From the NCBI GenBank assembly GCA_037379345.1, contig CM074517.1, forward strand, positions 1,736,001 to 1,800,000: DNA of 64,000 bases, given 5' to 3'. Numbering within the stretch: position 1 is the first letter of the stretch; every line of letters begins with the position of its first letter. The position numbers were made by a program, and so were the translations under genes. This stretch comes from Perna viridis. Its lineage: Eukaryota. The notes beneath the pieces were generated by a model that had not been told where the DNA came from, made no database searches, and saw only the letters and a list, made by a program, of their open reading frames with translations. This document shows positions 1-56,393 of the stretch, piece after piece.

Positions 1-1935
1 ATTATTTTTATGGCTTAAATTAATGCCCTGATAAATCTGTGTTTTGCTACTGATGTTTTTCATTGAAGGCAATGTAAGTATAATTAAAATTATAAAAGAG
101 CTTATATTTTCCTGTGTTTAAGTGCAAATCTTGAGGAACAGTTCTGTGTAAAATTCATGCAAGCACAAACACAAAGTGCTACTAGGGAGAAAAAATACTA
201 TTTAGATGAGGTTTGGGCACCATTTTTTATGGTCAATAAAAATGATAATAAATTCCAATAAAAAAACCTGACCAAGGAAATCATTTCTTGTTTCATTTTA
301 ACTCTTTAATTGGAGTTATGTCCCTTTATCAATTAAGCATGACACTTAGGTTGATTTACAGCTCCTTAATTTGACAACTAGATCAGGATCTCTATCAGAA
401 ATAATGAGTTCCACCACAGTGTGTAGATACATGCATATCACTAACATAATTATTTTGTTATTTAAAGACATATAGTAGAGAAATGTTACATACAAAATAA
501 ATGTGGTCAAGACAGAATAGAAAGAATATATCACTATTGGCCTAACAACATCAATGATTTATTCAAGTAGTAGTGTTAACAAACAGTTACAGTAAGTTCA
601 TGAACCATTGTGATGCACACAGTAATTTTAGAATTTACAATATCAATAAACGATGTCAAAGTCATATCAGGTTTTAACTATATATGAAACAAAAAATTTA
701 AAATGAAATATCCCAACACCACAGACCAACAGAAAAAAGTCCAACACTTTTAAAAAAAGACATTATTCTGATAAAGCTCACAAACATAACATATGATACA
801 ATATCTGACCTCAGCTGACAATCATATGCCTCCTCATACTTCTTCTCTTGCAGGTCACTACATGTATCTTGTCTCAGCCTCTCATAGATTCTGTCAATAG
901 CTTGCTAATCACTCTAATGCTAGATGGCTTATCATCAGCTACACCAAAACTTCCTTCATCTATTTTTTTAGTTTGGTATGATTGTTGCCTGTTTGACACA
1001 TTCTGGATTTCCTATTTCTTCTCTATAACCAAACATGTGTTGTCCTGTGTTGTAGTAAACTAAAAGATAATGTAATTCTTCTAAGAAATCCTGGTATTCT
1101 GACCATTTCTGGCTTAAGTCTGCTACAGCCTCTGCCTGGTTACAAAATATCTACGGCTGGTTGCAAACTTTCCCAAAATCTTTCATATCATAACCATAAC
1201 ATCATCTAGTTGGAAGGTCAGTTGTGGCACCCAAACCACTGCTCTTTGGGTTTCAGGCTTCCAGTTTGGCTCCTCCATCTGTTCAATATTGAGCACTATG
1301 CCTTCTCCTTTGCAAGTCCTTATACAGCTGCTCTCCATTATAACAATTGTTCAAATAAAAATGCTTCCCTTTACTTTAATGTAACTGTGTGATGATTGAG
1401 TATTGCAGTGATATATTGGTGCCATAATATGACCATGAAATAGCCACTGACCCAAAACAAAAATGTGTAACTGTGTTCAATGCTGTACTATGTAGATAGA
1501 AATGAAATATAAAAAGACCTGACCAAGACAACTCAACTGCATCATACTCAGAACAAATGGCAGCACATTTATGACAACATTTTATTGCTGGAAGTAAGGA
1601 TGAAACATTTCTGAACTGAAAATGTACCATAAACCAATCTCAGGTAATAATTCTGTCAACAATTTATTTTAATTCCTCCTTTGTTTATCTATTGCCATAA
1701 TATTATTCCTTACAATAAGGTTGTATAAATCTTACACCCCTCTATTACCATCATTCTATCAAGACTCTGTTCTAACTAACCTTGTATTGTTAATAGAAAA
1801 CCCTTTCTATCACATTAGTTAAATTATCTGTTGAAATTAAACAAGAAGTCGGTACACACCTGTGAAGTTAAGAAGAGAACAATCCTGTTGACATGTTGTT
1901 TAAAGTTATAGGTGTTAAAACACATTGGCTGATCA

Positions 1936-2680
1936 AAAACCATCCTGCCCTAGAAAAAATTGGCACCTCAGTTCAAACTACACAGGCAAAATTATTTCAC
2001 ATGATTGTCACCTGAATTGAGCAAATAAACTAAGTGAAAGAGTTCACATGAAATTTGGGTGAATGGAGCTTTCAGATGAAATTCACACGAAATGTTCACA
2101 TGAAATTTGTGTTTAATGAATTTCACATGAAAATCATGTTAATTTCATGTGAATTTCACATGTAGCTCGATTAACATGAATTCCACGTGAAAAATATTTG
2201 CCTGTGTATCCTACCCTAGGAAAACTTGACACCACAGTCCAAACCATCCTGCCCTAGGAAAAACTTGACACCACAGTCCAAACCATCCTGCCCTAGGAAA
2301 AACTCGACACCTCAGTCCAAACCATCCTGCCCTGGAAAAGCTTGGCACCACAGTCCAAACCATCCTGCCCTGGAAAAACTCGACACCACAGTTCAAACCA
2401 TCCTGCCCTGGGAAAACCTGACATCACAGTCCAAACCATCCTGCCATAGGAAAACTTAACATCACAGTCAAAACCATCCGGCCATAGGAAAACCTGACAT
2501 CACAGTTCAAACCACCCTGCTCTTGGCACTTCAATCCAAAACCATCCTGTCCGTGGAAACCTCAGCATCTTATGGCCTGAACCACCATCCCCTAAAAAAT
2601 CCTCAGCATCTTAGTCCAAACCATCCTGCCCTTGAAAATCTTGGCACCTCAGTCCAAAACCATTCTGCCATTTCTAAGGA
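1936..2680. repeat. 38-39-bp minisatellite (ccctaggaaaaacttgacaccacagtccaaaccatcctg), interrupted by a MITE
   Basis: About 12 degenerate copies in 2209-2680 plus one copy at 1936-1978. Explains the PQSKPSCPRKN repeat ORFs. Confidence 0.9.
1981..2206. mobile_element. MITE (226 bp) with TA target-site duplication, Tc1/mariner-type
   Basis: TIRs CACAGGCAAAATTATTTCACATG and CACGTGAAAAATATTTGCCTGTG, with TA at 1979-1980 and 2207-2208. Removing the element restores a satellite unit. Internal TTCACATGAA repeats. Confidence 0.85.
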
Positions 2681-2987
2681 AATCTCAGACCTTAAACATT
2701 TCAACAGTAATTAAAAATCCAGGGCAAGACCTAATGCACTGTGCCAAAACCTTCAGTAAAAAGATCAGTAACTCATGGAAATCCCAAAAAGACATTACAC
2801 CCTGAGAGAACTGAGATATCTTCATTTGTCTTATTTTTTTCTTCTTCTTGCTCTTCCAAAGTAAACAGCATTAATCTCCCATCATTGTTGAAAGCTTCAG
2901 GCTTTGTTCTACCTGATCTTATTCTGACAAATACAAAAACAAATTGTTTATACAACATATAACAATTGTTATTGTTTCTTTATAATT

Positions 2988-3260
2988 ACTTATTCAGAAC
3001 CGAGAGCAAAATCAACCATCTTTTACCACCCCTAAGTGTGCCACCATCACAACTTATTCAGACCTGAGATAAAAAATTTACCATTTTTTACAACCCTAAG
3101 TATACCACCATCACAGCTTATTCAGACGTGAGAGCCAAATTTACCATCTTTTACCACCTTAACTGTGCCCCCATCACAGCAAAAACTGCTTTCTTTAACA
3201 ATGGTAAGTGTGTCATCACCCAAGCTTTTTCAGATCTAGAAACAAAATCTGTCATCTTTT
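2988..3260. repeat. ~64-bp degenerate tandem repeat (cttattcaga...ccatcaca), 3-4 copies
   Basis: Units start near 2988, 3052 and 3117. Confidence 0.75.
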
Positions 3261-3419
3261 AAGATTGTGCCACATCAAATGAATATCATGAATATAACTC
3301 ACTCCCATCATAAAGCTTTCTTGAGAAGAAGGGGAAAATTTCTAGTGAGATTTCTTATAGTATTCCATGTTAGTGGGAGAGAAAAACAATCCATTTCTGA
3401 TAAGCTAGTAAAACCCTAA

Positions 3420-3610
3420 GCTATGGAAGGTCCCTCAAGACATTGACAGTTGATGGATTAGACCTCCATTCAAGTCATGGTAGGCCCCTCAAAACATTGG
3501 GAGTTGATGGGCTAGACCTCCAGTCCAGTCATGGTTAGGTCCCTTTAAACATTGGCAGTTAATGGGCTAGACCACTAGTAAGTTGTGGTAGGTTCCTGAA
3601 AACATTGACT
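3420..3610. repeat. ~55-bp degenerate tandem repeat (catggtaggcccctcaaaacattgg...gctagacc), ~3.5 copies
   Basis: Visible periodic recurrence of ggtaggtccc..aaacattg..agttgatggg.tagacc. Confidence 0.7.
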
Positions 3611-4883
3611 AGAACATCCAGTGGTGCCAAATCTTCAGATCTGTAAGCCTGTAACCAATATAACCCATCTTCTGTTTTAACATAATGACATTGTTTAATT
3701 ATAACACAGTGTCCATACTTTCATTTTTCAGAAGCTTGTAAGGTTCAAGGAAGCCTATATCAGAAAGACACACATTTCACTCAGTTCAGAAGAAAATATA
3801 ATTGTTTCTACAGAATCTTAGCCAAAGTAATGACAGACACACAAATTCCTCAGTATATCACGTATTAATTTACCATGACCAAGACAGAAATTGCCCTTAG
3901 TTCTCATAACTCTCCTAGGTTATTTATAGAAACCCCATTCTGTTATTTATACATGTAAATGTTTTATTCTTATGAATGAACACTTCACCCTGAGAATGGA
4001 GTGTGAACATGTCTATCTGTACTGAAACATTGGAATAACATTACAATGAATAAAAAATAATTTGATTTAGAAGAATTAGCAAATGTAATATCAAATCAAG
4101 CCAATCATCAAAAGGAGGGAAATAAAAAACATAAAATTAACTGATACATTGTATATTCTAAATAAATAGTTAACAACAAATCTATTATCAAAGCCCCTCT
4201 TCCTGCAAAATAGCAAATACATTTTTTTGTATCAAAACTTAAAGACAGGACTTATTAAACAAATCCCATTACTGTTGACATCATTGTTTACATGTGGCTC
4301 CTATATTCTTAGAAGAATCTCAAAGTCAGTATACAAGCATTGCATAACACTAATGTAATTATATGCTTTATCCTGCAGAATATAAATTCTAAGTATATTT
4401 TGATAAACATACATTATTAATAAAAGAACAGCTGGTTTAGAGAGAGAAAAAAAGCAAGATGGAGGAGTTAGTGAAAATATGATTTATATTTCAGCTTTTC
4501 TGCTACTTATTTTACATAAAATGTCATCTGATTACTGAAATATTTTAATAGATTTTAAACAGACAAAATTTCCCACAGAAACAAAGCAACATGCACTTTC
4601 AAATTTTACTCTGGTAAAAAATGTTAAGACATAATTTTCAAACATCATGATAAAATTAAACTTAGTTCAATAAAGTAAAAAAAAACTCAGTTACTTAAAA
4701 CTTTGTATCAGGATTATCATTGTTATTCTATTTCCTCTAAGACCAAGAAAAAAAAAACAACCCTTTTTTTAAGTGTGAAAAAAATGTGTAAAAGGCATGG
4801 TTGTTAATTCATTTTAAGTTTTAACAAAAAAAAGGAAAAAAAACTGCATTAGTATGAGTAATTTTATGATGAGCACTACTTAC

Positions 4884-4995
4884 CTGCTATAAGCTGATTT
4901 AATCCTATCTTATGATCGTAGCGACACACGACAAGCTTCTTCACGATTGGAGACGTTTGTGACGACACAGGATGATCAGTGCACACGACAACATG
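4884..4995 (-). other. CpG-rich candidate alternative first exon next to an (ATT)n microsatellite
   Basis: Perfect donor CAG|GTAAGT at 4883 and local CpG retention. (ATT)~7 at 4998-5018. Confidence 0.4.
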
Positions 4996-6939
4996 GTATT
5001 ATTATTATTATTATTATTAAGAACAGACGGTAGCTGTGAACATGTGTTAATATTTTACAGAAATAACTTCACAGCTTCCACCAGAGGTTACTGAGAAAAT
5101 ACATCCAAGTTAATTAGGAGGAGTTAAAGAAATATGCTCATTAGCTAGGCCTTGGCTCATTTGATAATACTACTATAATCCTAATAAATGGAAGAGAAAT
5201 AATGTGTACATTTCATTTCCATACTTTCAAAACGCTTCTTCAGAAATATGCAATGATAATGCAATGATAAATACTAGATTAAATCAGTAATTGTTTAAGA
5301 GATTGAAAGTGTTAGATATAGAACGTCTATGATAGGTTTTTTTTACAAATAACTTCACTGTGAGGTTGGAGGTACAGACAAGTTAGAAAAGATTTGTTTT
5401 ATAGAGCTTATACATGAATATGCCCAGACGGCTAAAACACAGAACAATTTCTTCTCAAAAAGTGGTGCGGGGGGGAACTAATGGAAAGAGGGGTGTGGTT
5501 ATTGAATCATCGTTTTTTTTCATTCCATGGCAGTGTAAATAAAGAAATTTTTGCTAAAACTTGAATGAATTTTTCTTTTCAAATAATCCAAGGACCCCAT
5601 CAGTTTAAAAATGGTTAGTGTCAAAGTTTTATTTACTTCTTTAATCTGAAGAAATATCAGACAACTACATTTTTTTAGGCAACATGTAAAGCATGTGAAG
5701 CATACTGTGAATTAAATATATGAAAATGTTTCTTCTGACCAACATACCATACTAAACCTACTGTTAAGTAGATACATGTCATTTCCTGTACTACATGTAG
5801 TAACTACAAGAACAAATTCTGCCGTAATTATAAACAGATTACAAGGAGACTTTTGCTAGGGCTGGAAGAGATATATGCCACTGCCTAATGTGGCCTATAA
5901 GTGTGGCCATCACACAGAATCAATTGTATTTTTTTAGAAAATAAGCTTCCACCAGACATAGAGAAAAATATACTGTAATTAATGACCTCATACTCCACCA
6001 ATGTGATGTGGAACACGGAAAAGTCTTGAGCACAATCCCAGGATACATATTAATTCAAAATTAGGGATAATAAACACTAGAACATAATAAACCAGTACAA
6101 AAATATATTGGCTAGGCAGAGAATAAAACTAACGGTACAAACATTAATCTCTAATGAAGACAGGAAATCTTGTCATTAATTTCTATTTACGTGTCTGCCT
6201 TTTGACCGTGTACATCTTTGTTGTCAATACCTAGTGATCTGATGTCCTGTCGTGAGCTTCAGACAAAAAATCTTCAAAGTTAAAACATTTAATCTTATAT
6301 TCCTGGTTAACTGTTTGGTAAAGAACTTTGGAATCAGACTTATAAAAAAAATCTACGAGGTGAACATACAGGGATATATATATTTTAATCTCTGCAGAAT
6401 TGTAAGGGATTAAAAAAAAAAAAAGACATACATGTAACATGAAGTTGCAAATGTTGAAGTGCTAGGTATACCCCAATCGGTACAGGAAGTCAATGTCAAA
6501 AGCGTTTAAACAGTCACATACCAAATTTGAAATCAATCTGACCAATACTAGTATATCCTGAATGCTAGAGGATATGCATGAAACAGGTACAGAACTATGA
6601 TGTATTGATACTTATGCACCTGCATACCAAATATGATTGACCTACTACAGGTAGGTCATATTAAACTGAGCTAATAACAAAACTTTACATAAAATCTTAA
6701 ATGCAGATGCCAATGCTGGAAAAGCAATATCTTAATTTTGCCTTCCGTTACAAAAAGGTGAAACAAAAATGGGAAAGTCACATGAAGCAGTAAACTGACA
6801 ACAGACAGCAACCAAAATCTTTTTACAATGTGGGCCTATTCTACATAATACCACACAACAAAATTGAAAATCAACCAGTGGGAGCCAAGATGGACAGAAA
6901 TACAGACGGACCTTTGGACTGACTGAGTAAGAGTATAAT

Positions 6940-53322: not shown

Positions 53323-53958
53323 ATAATATTACCTTGTGAAAGCAAGATTTGTTTAACTACATTTCTTTCATTTTTTGCATTTTTCATTTTTGCTAAGGAT
53401 TAACTGATGTCATATTATATGGTTTCCATCACACCAAGACCACTCAGTGTCTTAAATTTTTTCTTCCAAATTTGTGTATTTGTAATAATTTGATTTTTTT
53501 TAGAGGGGTTTCTTTGTCATTTTCCCAGAATTGCTTTATATGCTGGCAGTGTGCACAGACCATGTGTAACAATTAGTGGTTTAATGACAAAACACCTGTA
53601 ATCAATCATCCAATCAAAATAAGAAAATGTAAAGGAAATAATTTTAGGAAGGTAGATATATGAGGCCATCATTAGATGTTCCCTAAGGGACCCATACTTA
53701 GGAAGAAGAATTCATATTTATATATGGTTCGGAATGTAATAGTTCTTTAGAAGCAAGGATTTCTAACAGATTGTTGAATGAGAAACCTGGCAGTTCCTAT
53801 TATATGGATGGCACATGGTAAAATTTATCCAAATGAAGTAATGTTTATATCATATTTATGTCCAAAAGTACTAATATTTTTTTAAATTGTCAATGAATGC
53901 TCAAAAGATTTTGTTAAAGTTCCCCAAGAAATCAACCAAATTTTGCACCATATGAAAG

Positions 53959-54479
53959 TTTGTTTGTTTGTTTGTTGGGGTTTAACGCCTGAGCAGCAAT
54001 ATTTCAGCTATATTCAGGTGATGAACATGAAGTGGATGATAAAATGAACATGAAATGATGATGAAATGAAAAATGGGATGGGACACAAGGATAATAGGGT
54101 CGACAAATTTTGATTGCCACTGGAAATAGGGAGAGGTGGGTAAGGTCGGGCAATTTAGCCTCCTGTGGTGGAGCCCTATGGTTCCTACTCCGGGAGAATA
54201 CCACAGTCAGGTTTTTTAACGTTTGAGGAACATGGCATCTTTTCCAACATGGTGCAATGCTATGGTTTGCAGTCAGGTTTTCCGTATTATAGCCTGACAA
54301 CCCCAGCATGTAACACACTAGGGGTACCCCATTCCACCACCAGGGGCACACAACCCAGTTGTTCTGTGGGCAGAGCGCCCTAGCCTCCGGCTAAGGTTCT
54401 GAGCACTATTTAGTTGCCTTTTACGACAAGCTTAGCACTGCTGCAGGCCTATTTTTTTTACATCGGACCTGCACGGGGC
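53959..54479 (-). mobile_element. Full-length SINE-like retroposon with (AAAC)n tail, 11-bp TSD and a non-tRNA structured 5' head
   Basis: TSD ccatatgaaag (53948-53958) and ccaaatgaaag (54480-54490). Minus-strand 3' end gctgaaatattgctg...ggcgttaaac(ccc)(aaac)n. Central acgttaaaaaacc resembles the Deu/Nin SINE domain motif. GC-rich. Confidence 0.8.
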
Positions 54480-56393
54480 CCAAATGAAAGAGTTATCTCC
54501 CTTTTTCAATGAATTTCAATGCTTTCTATGTAATTTATTTCTCTTTCACCATTGCAGTTAATCAAAAACCAACACTCAACTTTGTGAAAGGATGCATTTG
54601 TAATTTGAAATAGATGAAAATTTTCTGAAAATAAAATTTTTTATGTGCTACCACTGTCTGGTTTTTGTGGGGACACCCTCTTTTAAAAAGTCTACTATAG
54701 AAATCCGCAGTAAAAGTTGGTGTTTCTGTTCATTGTTGAGTTGTTATTTGCAAGCAAAAGCACCAACACCATATTTAGCGAAAAACAGCTGTGGTTGTTA
54801 AGATGGTTTAAATATTTTAAAAGAGATGCTTTTAACAGTTGAGCCTCCTTAATTTCTCCTAAATTCAACTTTTTTCAGCTAAAATAATATGTTGCTTGCT
54901 TTTGGAACCTTGATGATCTTAAAGTAGTTGTCTAGAAGCTGTTTTGACAGTTGAAATTCCAAGTAAACCATATTGATCAATATATTGCCATTTTGACACC
55001 TCAGGATATTGCAATCCAATCAAATTTAATTAAATAATTACCACTTACAGTACTTTGAGAAAATGACACCTTGAAAAAAATGAGGTTCGACAAGGGGTAG
55101 TCCAGTGCGCCTTGGGACCACACTCTGGACCTTCCACTGAGACTTGTATATGCATGATTAGTAATTCATTCATCTTTGTCTATGACATTTTTATATAATA
55201 TTATATTGTTTTTGCCGTACCTATAGTTTGTAGATATTTTATTTTATTATTACCGGGTATATTATTCTATATTTACTTGTGCAGAGTTAGAGTTACTGTG
55301 TCAAAGAAATCTATTTTATCAGTCTTTGCTAGAAGGACAAGAAAAAAACTTGATGCTTCATTGGAAAGCTTTTTGTTGTTTTTTTTTTTAATCATTCTAG
55401 TCAAGTCAATTTGCTTTCTAGTTCTAAAACCATTCTTCTTTTTATTCAGTTTCTTAGTAGATCTTTTTAAATCTGCTGATTCCTTCAAAAATTATGTTAG
55501 CTGTGTGGGCATTCTGATTTACATATTCTGTCTTTAGATGATTTAGATTATTGAACCAAGGTATTGCTGGAGATAAAGCTCATTTACTGTGATGTGCTCA
55601 TTTACCCTGATGTGCTAATTTACTGTTATGTGCTCATCCTAATGCTTCAAATTTTATATGGATTTAGGCAATTCCTAGATTTTTAGAATCTGTATTATGC
55701 AACTATTTGGTGCTTGTGTTATGGCTAGAAAGTCATATTTAGTGTGAAACAGTTCTACTACTTTTGATAAGAGCAAGCAGCTAACCTTAATCTTGAAGGG
55801 GACTTAATCATAGTCACTTTTAAGTGATCAAAAAAGCACTCAGTTTGGTCAATGTCTACTCAAAAACTGAAAACACAATCTTCATTTACATGGACATTCT
55901 ACTAATAAATGTTCTATTTAGAACAGCAGGAAATATTTGACCTGTACATGTACTTTTTCAAGAATTTAGAGCATGTTTAATTAAATGTTGGACCAAAACC
56001 TGTTCTTTAATCCAACACTAAGCTTGGAGATTTATATGAATATAATAAATCTTCAGGAGTTTAAAAAAAACATGTTATGCTCCTGAAGAAACATATGCAA
56101 TTATTTCTGAATTTCAAAAATCTTATTCTGTTAAGGTTTTAACCATAAAGTCTAGTTTTGTAGCAACAATTTATATCTAATTTATAATGGACCATTTTCT
56201 AATGGCGTTCAGAATTTCAATTGGCCATTCTTAAACATTTTTGTTAAAAAAATGTGATTGTAGTGGGACATTTCATTTGGAATGAGATAAATGATGGATG
56301 GTTCCCTGTAATTAAATCACTGCAGTACTCCAAAGGCCGTATTAGAAAAAAAAACAGGAAAATATAAATAACATTTAAGTAGCACTCCAGCTA

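Follow-up and report, generated by a model that had tools for sequence, protein, structure and literature searches.

Among mollusc SINEs, a class has been described whose ~70-bp head is common to Nimb-17_LMi, I-3_DR and RTE-9_CPB (Matetovici et al., 2016; PMC4758252). In the available text of that paper, these elements are named LP ("LINE promoter") SINEs, an AATATA hexamer is named for those of Haliotis, and the head is presumed to be a promoter, explicitly as a presumption not put to the test, with Pr77 as the promoter-ribozyme analogy. A second group of interest, the Bipartite non-autonomous LINE derivatives, keeps a LINE 5' end together with a LINE 3' end, according to the portion of the source at hand (Kojima, 2018; PMC5786205).

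At the RNA level, two kinds of structures must be considered: (i) class 3 xrRNAs, in which, following the accessible part of PMC11702639, 8-9 bp are formed between a loop and a 3' strand, Xrn1 halting at the base of P1; and (ii) self-cleaving ribozymes, those of totiviruses belonging, in the available part of PMC13725137, to known classes and occurring in pairs. The locus described here bears on how LINEs and SINEs without Pol III heads gain exact 5' ends, a matter for which the LP-SINE promoter was only presumed in 2016.

The window, i.e., the whole stretch of 64,000 nucleotides of Perna viridis DNA that was analysed, contains a full-length, slightly damaged SINE copy of 521 bp (Table 1), whose sequence, coordinates and strand were confirmed as given in a preliminary description of this DNA. 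The 11-bp target-site duplication (TSD) reported there has the right length, with one mismatch between its copies (CTTTCATTTGG at 54480-54490 vs. CTTTCATATGG at 53948-53958), and the SINE-type tail does end in CAAA repeats. This tail resembles those of mollusc LP-SINEs and is similar, in plan only, to the 3' end of an RNase H-bearing Nimb-type LINE resident in the genome. As for the reported lack of A and B boxes, it holds for the B box (absent from the element with one mismatch allowed) and for a strict A box, but three loose A-box-like matches exist (positions 52, 141 and 165). Directly upstream of the element (window 54482-54640) lies another repeat family, with multi-copy RNA-seq coverage, and ~20 minisatellite arrays (units of 32-68 bp, several with >90% identity) are found between positions 2208 and 62876.

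In the 723-Mb animal genome that contains the window, a first look gave 3,805 candidate heads; the exact head 15-mer occurs 9,582 times and the exact tail 18-mer 16,274 times, with 0 occurrences of either reversed control. The family has about 10,000 heads in this genome. The core motif given in the preliminary description is real: it has 125 exact genome matches vs. 0 for its reversed control, and relatives elsewhere. No LINE donor of the head was found in this genome, since 55 core-pattern loci (30 of 125 plus 25 of 25) all belong to this SINE family and a scan of eight LINE neighbourhoods with the motif model gave SINE copies only. The single full-length Nimb-type LINE examined here (L178, minus strand, ~350-6390; two ORFs, endonuclease, RT and RNase H) bears at its 5' end a different, GC-rich hairpin head, which suggests that LINE heads are swapped as modules. 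Dense clusters of the SINE exist in contig C1 (3.33-3.55 Mb), L160 and L046:2610-2738, where copies are nested, inverted or arranged tail to tail, so that long double-stranded RNA would result.

The 5' boundary of the family was established from 93 heads in fetched loci, 60 of which had flank and tail and yielded 50 TSD calls (a few of them doubtful), 10-15 bp long in 47 cases. The starts so defined fall exactly at the G of GCCCCG in 30 of the 50 calls, so that copy 5' ends do pile up at the motif, as had been proposed for verification; 4/50 start one base later and 5/50 carry one extra purine. In one raw-read RNA-seq run with the same species label, mapped on another copy of the family, 334 reads exit the family sequence at the equivalent of this G, while 85 do so two bases short and 70 one base short. 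TSD starts and RNA-seq exits together define a sharp boundary, with no extension of the copies into a tRNA or 5S head; ARAGORN finds no tRNA gene in the element either, and the earlier view of a SINE without a tRNA head is upheld.

In relatives, the head folds into an H-type pseudoknot followed by a variable stem, P3, and a near-invariant hairpin, the helix order being P1, P2, P1', P2', P3, P4, P4', P3'. P1 measures 4-7 bp among relatives and 4 bp in the window family; P2 is formed by an 8-nt loop that opens with an invariant U and pairs with the strand after (G)AATA; and the hairpin, GTCG-TAARAGG-CGAC, lies inside P3 past an internal loop. The invariant U has A, G or C as its partner and, in consequence, may be an unpaired loop base. 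Two adjacent hairpins had been described instead: the 85-mer alone does fold in this way (z -2.2; 3/200 shuffles equally good), z falling to -0.3 and -1.4 in longer windows, but the fold supported across relatives is a pseudoknot plus a hairpin. The first of those hairpins is one pseudoknot stem, and the other stem (CCCG/CGGG) was hidden because the copy is damaged. This damage affects two stem positions: (i) the copy has CGAT where the family majority has CGGG, as do 64 of the 89 heads sampled among those bearing the commonest P2; and (ii) it has CAAC where relatives have CGAC, a G-to-A change in the 3' strand of the near-invariant hairpin. The A-rich linker is predicted, by analogy with H-type pseudoknots in general, to run along the P1 minor groove.

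Table 1. Features of the SINE copy and of its structured head (positions in the window).
Feature	Position	Strand	Evidence or remark
LP-type SINE copy	53959..54479	-	25 of 30 head-fetched genomic copies align over the whole length, 87-93% identity; TSD on both sides
5' target-site duplication	54480..54490	-	11 bp, one mismatch vs. 3' copy
3' target-site duplication	53948..53958	-	flanks SINE 3' end
Nimb-type 3' tail	53960..54017	-	AATATA hexamer and CAAA repeats
Family 5' boundary, first base G	54479	-	2 nt before P1, 6 nt before invariant U
P1 5' strand CCCG	54474..54477	-	in relatives, its partner is 54462-54465; paired in 90% of cells, two-sided changes in 2/4 pairs
P1 loop = P2 5' strand	54466..54473	-	first U invariant
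P1 3' strand, damaged (CGAT; family CGGG)	54462..54465	-	copy comparison
A-rich linker ending in conserved (G)AATA	54450..54461	-	invariant columns in alignment
P2 3' strand	54442..54449	-	two-sided changes in 7/8 pairs, 92% of cells paired
P3 stem, internal loop and hairpin	54402..54438	-	P3 54433-54438 with 54402-54409; hairpin 54413-54427
Family-specific hairpin after the motif	54377..54396	-	seen in the sequence; absent from other families

The evidence for this fold comes from covariation. A metagenome scan, with a pattern free of any pairing demand, gave 49 loci, and two alignments were considered: (i) 26 rows aligned by sequence only, chosen by hand out of 50 with redundant and degenerate copies left out, in which 6 of the 8 P2 pairs show two-sided changes and P3, of variable register, is 62% paired; and (ii) an 18-row alignment with roughly one sequence for each lineage, four of the rows being viral and discovered once the model had been built, in which P1 is 90% and P2 92-93% paired, with two-sided changes in 7/8 P2 pairs. 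The P2 score of the latter was reached by 0/500 shuffles (slid controls, 24-51%), and RNAalifold recovers P2 and the hairpin unaided. Since row picking biases pair counts, all anchored instances were tested as well: 56 were usable, in 19 clusters, and the first members of 12 clusters have at least 7/8 P2 pairs and a flanking P1, as against 21% of 342 swaps and 7% of shuffles. Among the seven clusters that fall short are degenerate copies and a family whose P2 is bulged. The G-U pairs are found on the element's sense strand. The compensatory changes in P1 and P2 bear out the covariation that the preliminary description expected across other retroposons. The hairpin, on the other hand, never covaries: its pairing is predicted, and its invariance is partly a product of the search patterns. 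The bases before the hairpin are altered in scallop and viral variants; a pairing of GCYU with the hairpin loop was dropped, as viral and scallop variants alter those bases. An apparent similarity between the hairpin and the decoding-site strand of small-subunit rRNA is probably due to chance.

The motif is not restricted to this SINE family. It heads four intact single-ORF endonuclease-RT LINEs, RTE-like (L094, L098, L108 and L116), where it lies ~80-200 nt before the start codons, as well as other SINE families, the same G being the first base in two of them. It is also located between the integrase and the F-type env of a gypsy-type element (L099), ~360 nt before env, and probably at the same place in a second, decayed one (L102, by-eye reading). 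Furthermore, an AT-rich contig of 212 kb from a DNA virus (L061), which we take to be iridovirus-like, has it in the interval separating two genes. Tandem copies occur in L186, L076 and L112, the last of these being a head-to-tail array of 74-nt units that correspond to the motif alone; shorter head duplications are seen in L016, L076, L098 and L186. A tRNA-type B box was observed in L086:423-560, upstream of a motif that lacks the 5' half of its pseudoknot.

Six RNA-virus-like contigs, from five lineages, bear the motif: (i) L062, with a toti-like RdRp; (ii) L193, with a tombus-like RdRp and a nodavirus-type capsid; (iii) L195, with a tombus-like RdRp; (iv) L189 and L194, near-identical, with a tetravirus-type capsid; and (v) L186, an S-domain capsid virus with no RdRp match and two tandem motifs. 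In all six, the motif is on the coding strand, 11-106 nt past the final stop codon, with 84-178 nt left to the end of the record; three of these contigs may be incomplete at the 3' end. In individual cases, a recent viral capture of host retroposon RNA may be involved. Relatives of the toti-like virus were searched for and none was found; further along its 3' UTR (L062:3095-3115), another hairpin, resembling the conserved one, is present. That the two crossing stems covary, and that the motif occurs in viruses lacking a DNA stage, shows that it acts as RNA.

By contrast, an occurrence in bacteria or phages was rejected. In GTDB there were four matches vs. ~4 expected by chance for the bare pattern: three with the full motif sit in animal-like repeat DNA, likely as host contamination, and the fourth (L066) has the core only. 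Animal SINEs complete with the motif-bearing head, TSD and tail are present in the bacterial MAG contigs L063, L064 and L065, where host DNA has likely contaminated the bins, and a metagenome record (L072:3972-4362) joins bacterial-looking ORFs to a copy of this SINE family, probably as a chimera or contamination. The loosest productive scan gave 12 matches, i.e., seven full motifs and five bare hairpins in phage coding DNA. The phage-like matches (L144, L147, L187, L188, L192, L196, L197, L199 and L200) have the hairpin only, at 9-14 bits, and are attributed to chance; GenBank phages gave no motif match.

The reading that we tentatively prefer, with a probability close to even, is that the first ~75 nt of the SINE, pseudoknot plus hairpin, act as a barrier to 5'-3' exonucleases, by analogy with xrRNAs. 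Host promoters nearby would drive transcription of the SINE copies; once the RNA had been decapped or cleaved upstream, Xrn1 or Xrn2 would digest it up to the knot and halt 1-2 nt before P1, so that read-through transcripts would be trimmed to the P1 base and protected. The near-invariant hairpin might fold back on the knot or bind a host factor, thereby bracing the knot, and the reverse transcriptase of a Nimb-clade LINE would take the tail and copy the RNA up to the trimmed end. The same barrier could give rise to subgenomic 3' RNAs in RNA viruses and to the env RNA in the gypsy-type element, leaving the genomic RNA intact. A barrier is an activity that fits every position of the motif; since cutting there would likely harm viral and LTR genomes, it fits better than a new ribozyme, a translation element or a DNA promoter.

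Several observations count against the barrier. The single RNA-seq run shows no spot where many molecules start, standard RNA-seq being poor at detecting 5' ends. Besides, at least 489 reads continue into the flanks at a depth of about 820, so that, in that library, RNAs with the head are for the most part untrimmed. An H-type knot of two stems does not necessarily encircle the 5' end, and a barrier alone leaves unexplained a hairpin conserved without covariation, which points to factor binding or catalysis.

The first alternative, of rather low probability, is a new class of self-cleaving ribozyme that would cut 6 nt before the invariant U and free the element from read-through transcripts. 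It fits the retroposon ends equally as well as the barrier does. The motif occupies the position of the HDV-like and twister ribozymes of other LINEs, RTE included, according to the available parts of the sources (PMC5786205; PMC6765202); the sharp 5' end keeps a fixed distance from the core despite the variable length of P1; and the invariant loop and junction bases recall catalytic cores. The array of 74-nt units in L112 and a possible second pseudoknot of 2 bp (94% paired, with no covariation) also count in its favour. Nevertheless, the would-be cut site has no conserved bases across lineages, many RNA-seq reads cross the junction, and no Rfam ribozyme matches. The case for the candidate ribozyme of the preliminary description, whose interpretation is partly supported, is also weakened by where the motif is found: in coding orientation just downstream of the final ORF in the six RNA-virus-like contigs, and in the pol-env interval of an LTR element. 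A cut at these sites would likely sever the 3' end of the genome.

It is likewise unlikely, and to the same degree, that the motif is a cap-independent translation or ribosome-binding element which would act at the start of the LINE ORF and of env, serve as a 3' enhancer in viruses, and bring the SINE to the LINE reverse transcriptase at ribosomes. Its distances from the LINE start codons and env suit such a role, 3' translation enhancers are usual in the 3' UTRs of tombus-like viruses, where the motif is found, and a hairpin kept unchanged, with no covariation, suits a host partner that is itself conserved; but the exact 5' ends of non-coding SINEs are left unexplained. A translation role could exist beside that of a barrier, and mixed roles for the motif are possible. 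Finally, the published LP hypothesis of an internal Pol II promoter starting at the G, with the RNA fold as something secondary or as a second function like that of L1Tc Pr77, is very improbable: put forward as a presumption in the available text of PMC4758252, and in keeping with the 5'-terminal position in LINEs and SINEs, with a start G that gains a purine (5/50) or is lost (4/50) as cap-templated ends may be, and with RNA-seq reads favouring one strand by ~1.8 to 1 (a ratio whose meaning hinges on library strandedness), it fits DNA elements only, given that viruses lacking a DNA stage have no use for a DNA promoter and that compensatory changes in two crossing stems would not be kept.

Natural variants of a 75-nt motif with a defined fold are available from molluscs, arthropods and viruses. 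If the motif blocks exonucleases, xrRNAs are not confined to viruses and there is a third route to retroposon 5' ends; if it cleaves, it represents a new ribozyme class. With ~10,000 heads in a single genome, an influence on the decay of host RNA is also possible.

Compared with known systems, the element shares with the LP-SINEs, as far as the available text of PMC4758252 describes them, a LINE-type head instead of a tRNA, variable TSDs (here, 50 calls in 60 copies), an end of tandem repeats and the AATATA hexamer. One model scores the window head at 60 bits and the heads of the intact RTE-like LINEs, which are themselves in the model, at 68-81 bits. In the scallop head of Supplementary Fig. 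S2 ("Nimb-17 homology"), the CGTAAGAGGCGACTAA core recurs along with both crossing stems and, therefore, the class was already known: what had been proposed as a new SINE class is published, and the element is a new family of it, with a body absent from the LP-SINE sequences compared (the Fig. 3 sequences lying outside the comparison). The available text of that paper proposes a promoter and contains neither a structure for the head nor any mention of it in viruses or at a pol-env site. In the literature searched (subscription journals, Repbase and figures being outside it), no paper deals with the fold or the viral occurrence, and the letters of the motif appear in no main text; within this literature, the fold and the spread into viruses are the new part. 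As to the Bipartite LINE derivatives, in the portion of PMC5786205 at hand they are, similarly, non-autonomous elements with LINE 5' and 3' ends, and L111 has the appearance of an RTE that bears this head and has lost an internal part. Here, however, head and tail need not stem from one LINE, the resident Nimb-type LINE having another head.

Among ribozymes, the nested double pseudoknot with five helices of the HDV-like class was not found, the helix order being different here, and neither were the fold and core that Rfam 15 gives for hammerhead, twister, twister sister, pistol and hatchet. In fact, no family of Rfam 15 covers the motif, which had no match at E<=10 when taken from 11 sources, in line with the earlier remark that it fits no named ribozyme. 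The likeness to the HDV-like and twister ribozymes at LINE 5' ends (R2, RTE, L1Tc Pr77 and Perere-3) consists in a compact pseudoknotted RNA at an exact 5' end, on the basis of the parts available of PMC5786205, PMC6765202 and PMC13725137; unlike them, the motif also occurs in viral 3' UTRs. As for 3' cap-independent translation enhancers, only the position of the motif fits.

Regarding xrRNAs, the motif belongs to none of the described classes. The supported structure has no three-way junction, unlike the flavivirus xrRNAs (class 1/2), built on a three-way junction with a double pseudoknot. From class 3, as described in the accessible part of PMC11702639, it differs in that the 8-nt loop is wholly used by P2 and P1 is one short helix, so that the L2B hairpin in the loop, the J1/2 bulge and the AGY before the pseudoknot strand are all absent; moreover, it has an extra conserved downstream hairpin domain and occurs in cellular retroposons, its activity here being predicted. 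It is conceivable, with somewhat less than an even probability, that it constitutes a new xrRNA class outside Rfam, a module that has spread through LINEs (RTE and Nimb), SINEs, gypsy-type elements, one large DNA virus and no fewer than five RNA-virus lineages, in which a host decay enzyme would trim retroposon 5' ends precisely without promoter or ribozyme. With the class 3 xrRNAs of Tombusviridae and Solemoviridae (ST9a, SCNMV and PLRV), following the same portion of PMC11702639, it shares (i) the long pseudoknot between loop and 3' strand; (ii) a 5' end close to P1, at its base in class 3 and 2 nt before it in the SINE; and (iii) the site, either intergenic or where the viral 3' UTR begins. 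Known xrRNAs sit after the last viral gene, as the motif does in the six RNA-virus-like contigs, and the intergenic class 3 xrRNAs have their counterpart in the motif between the integrase and env of L099.
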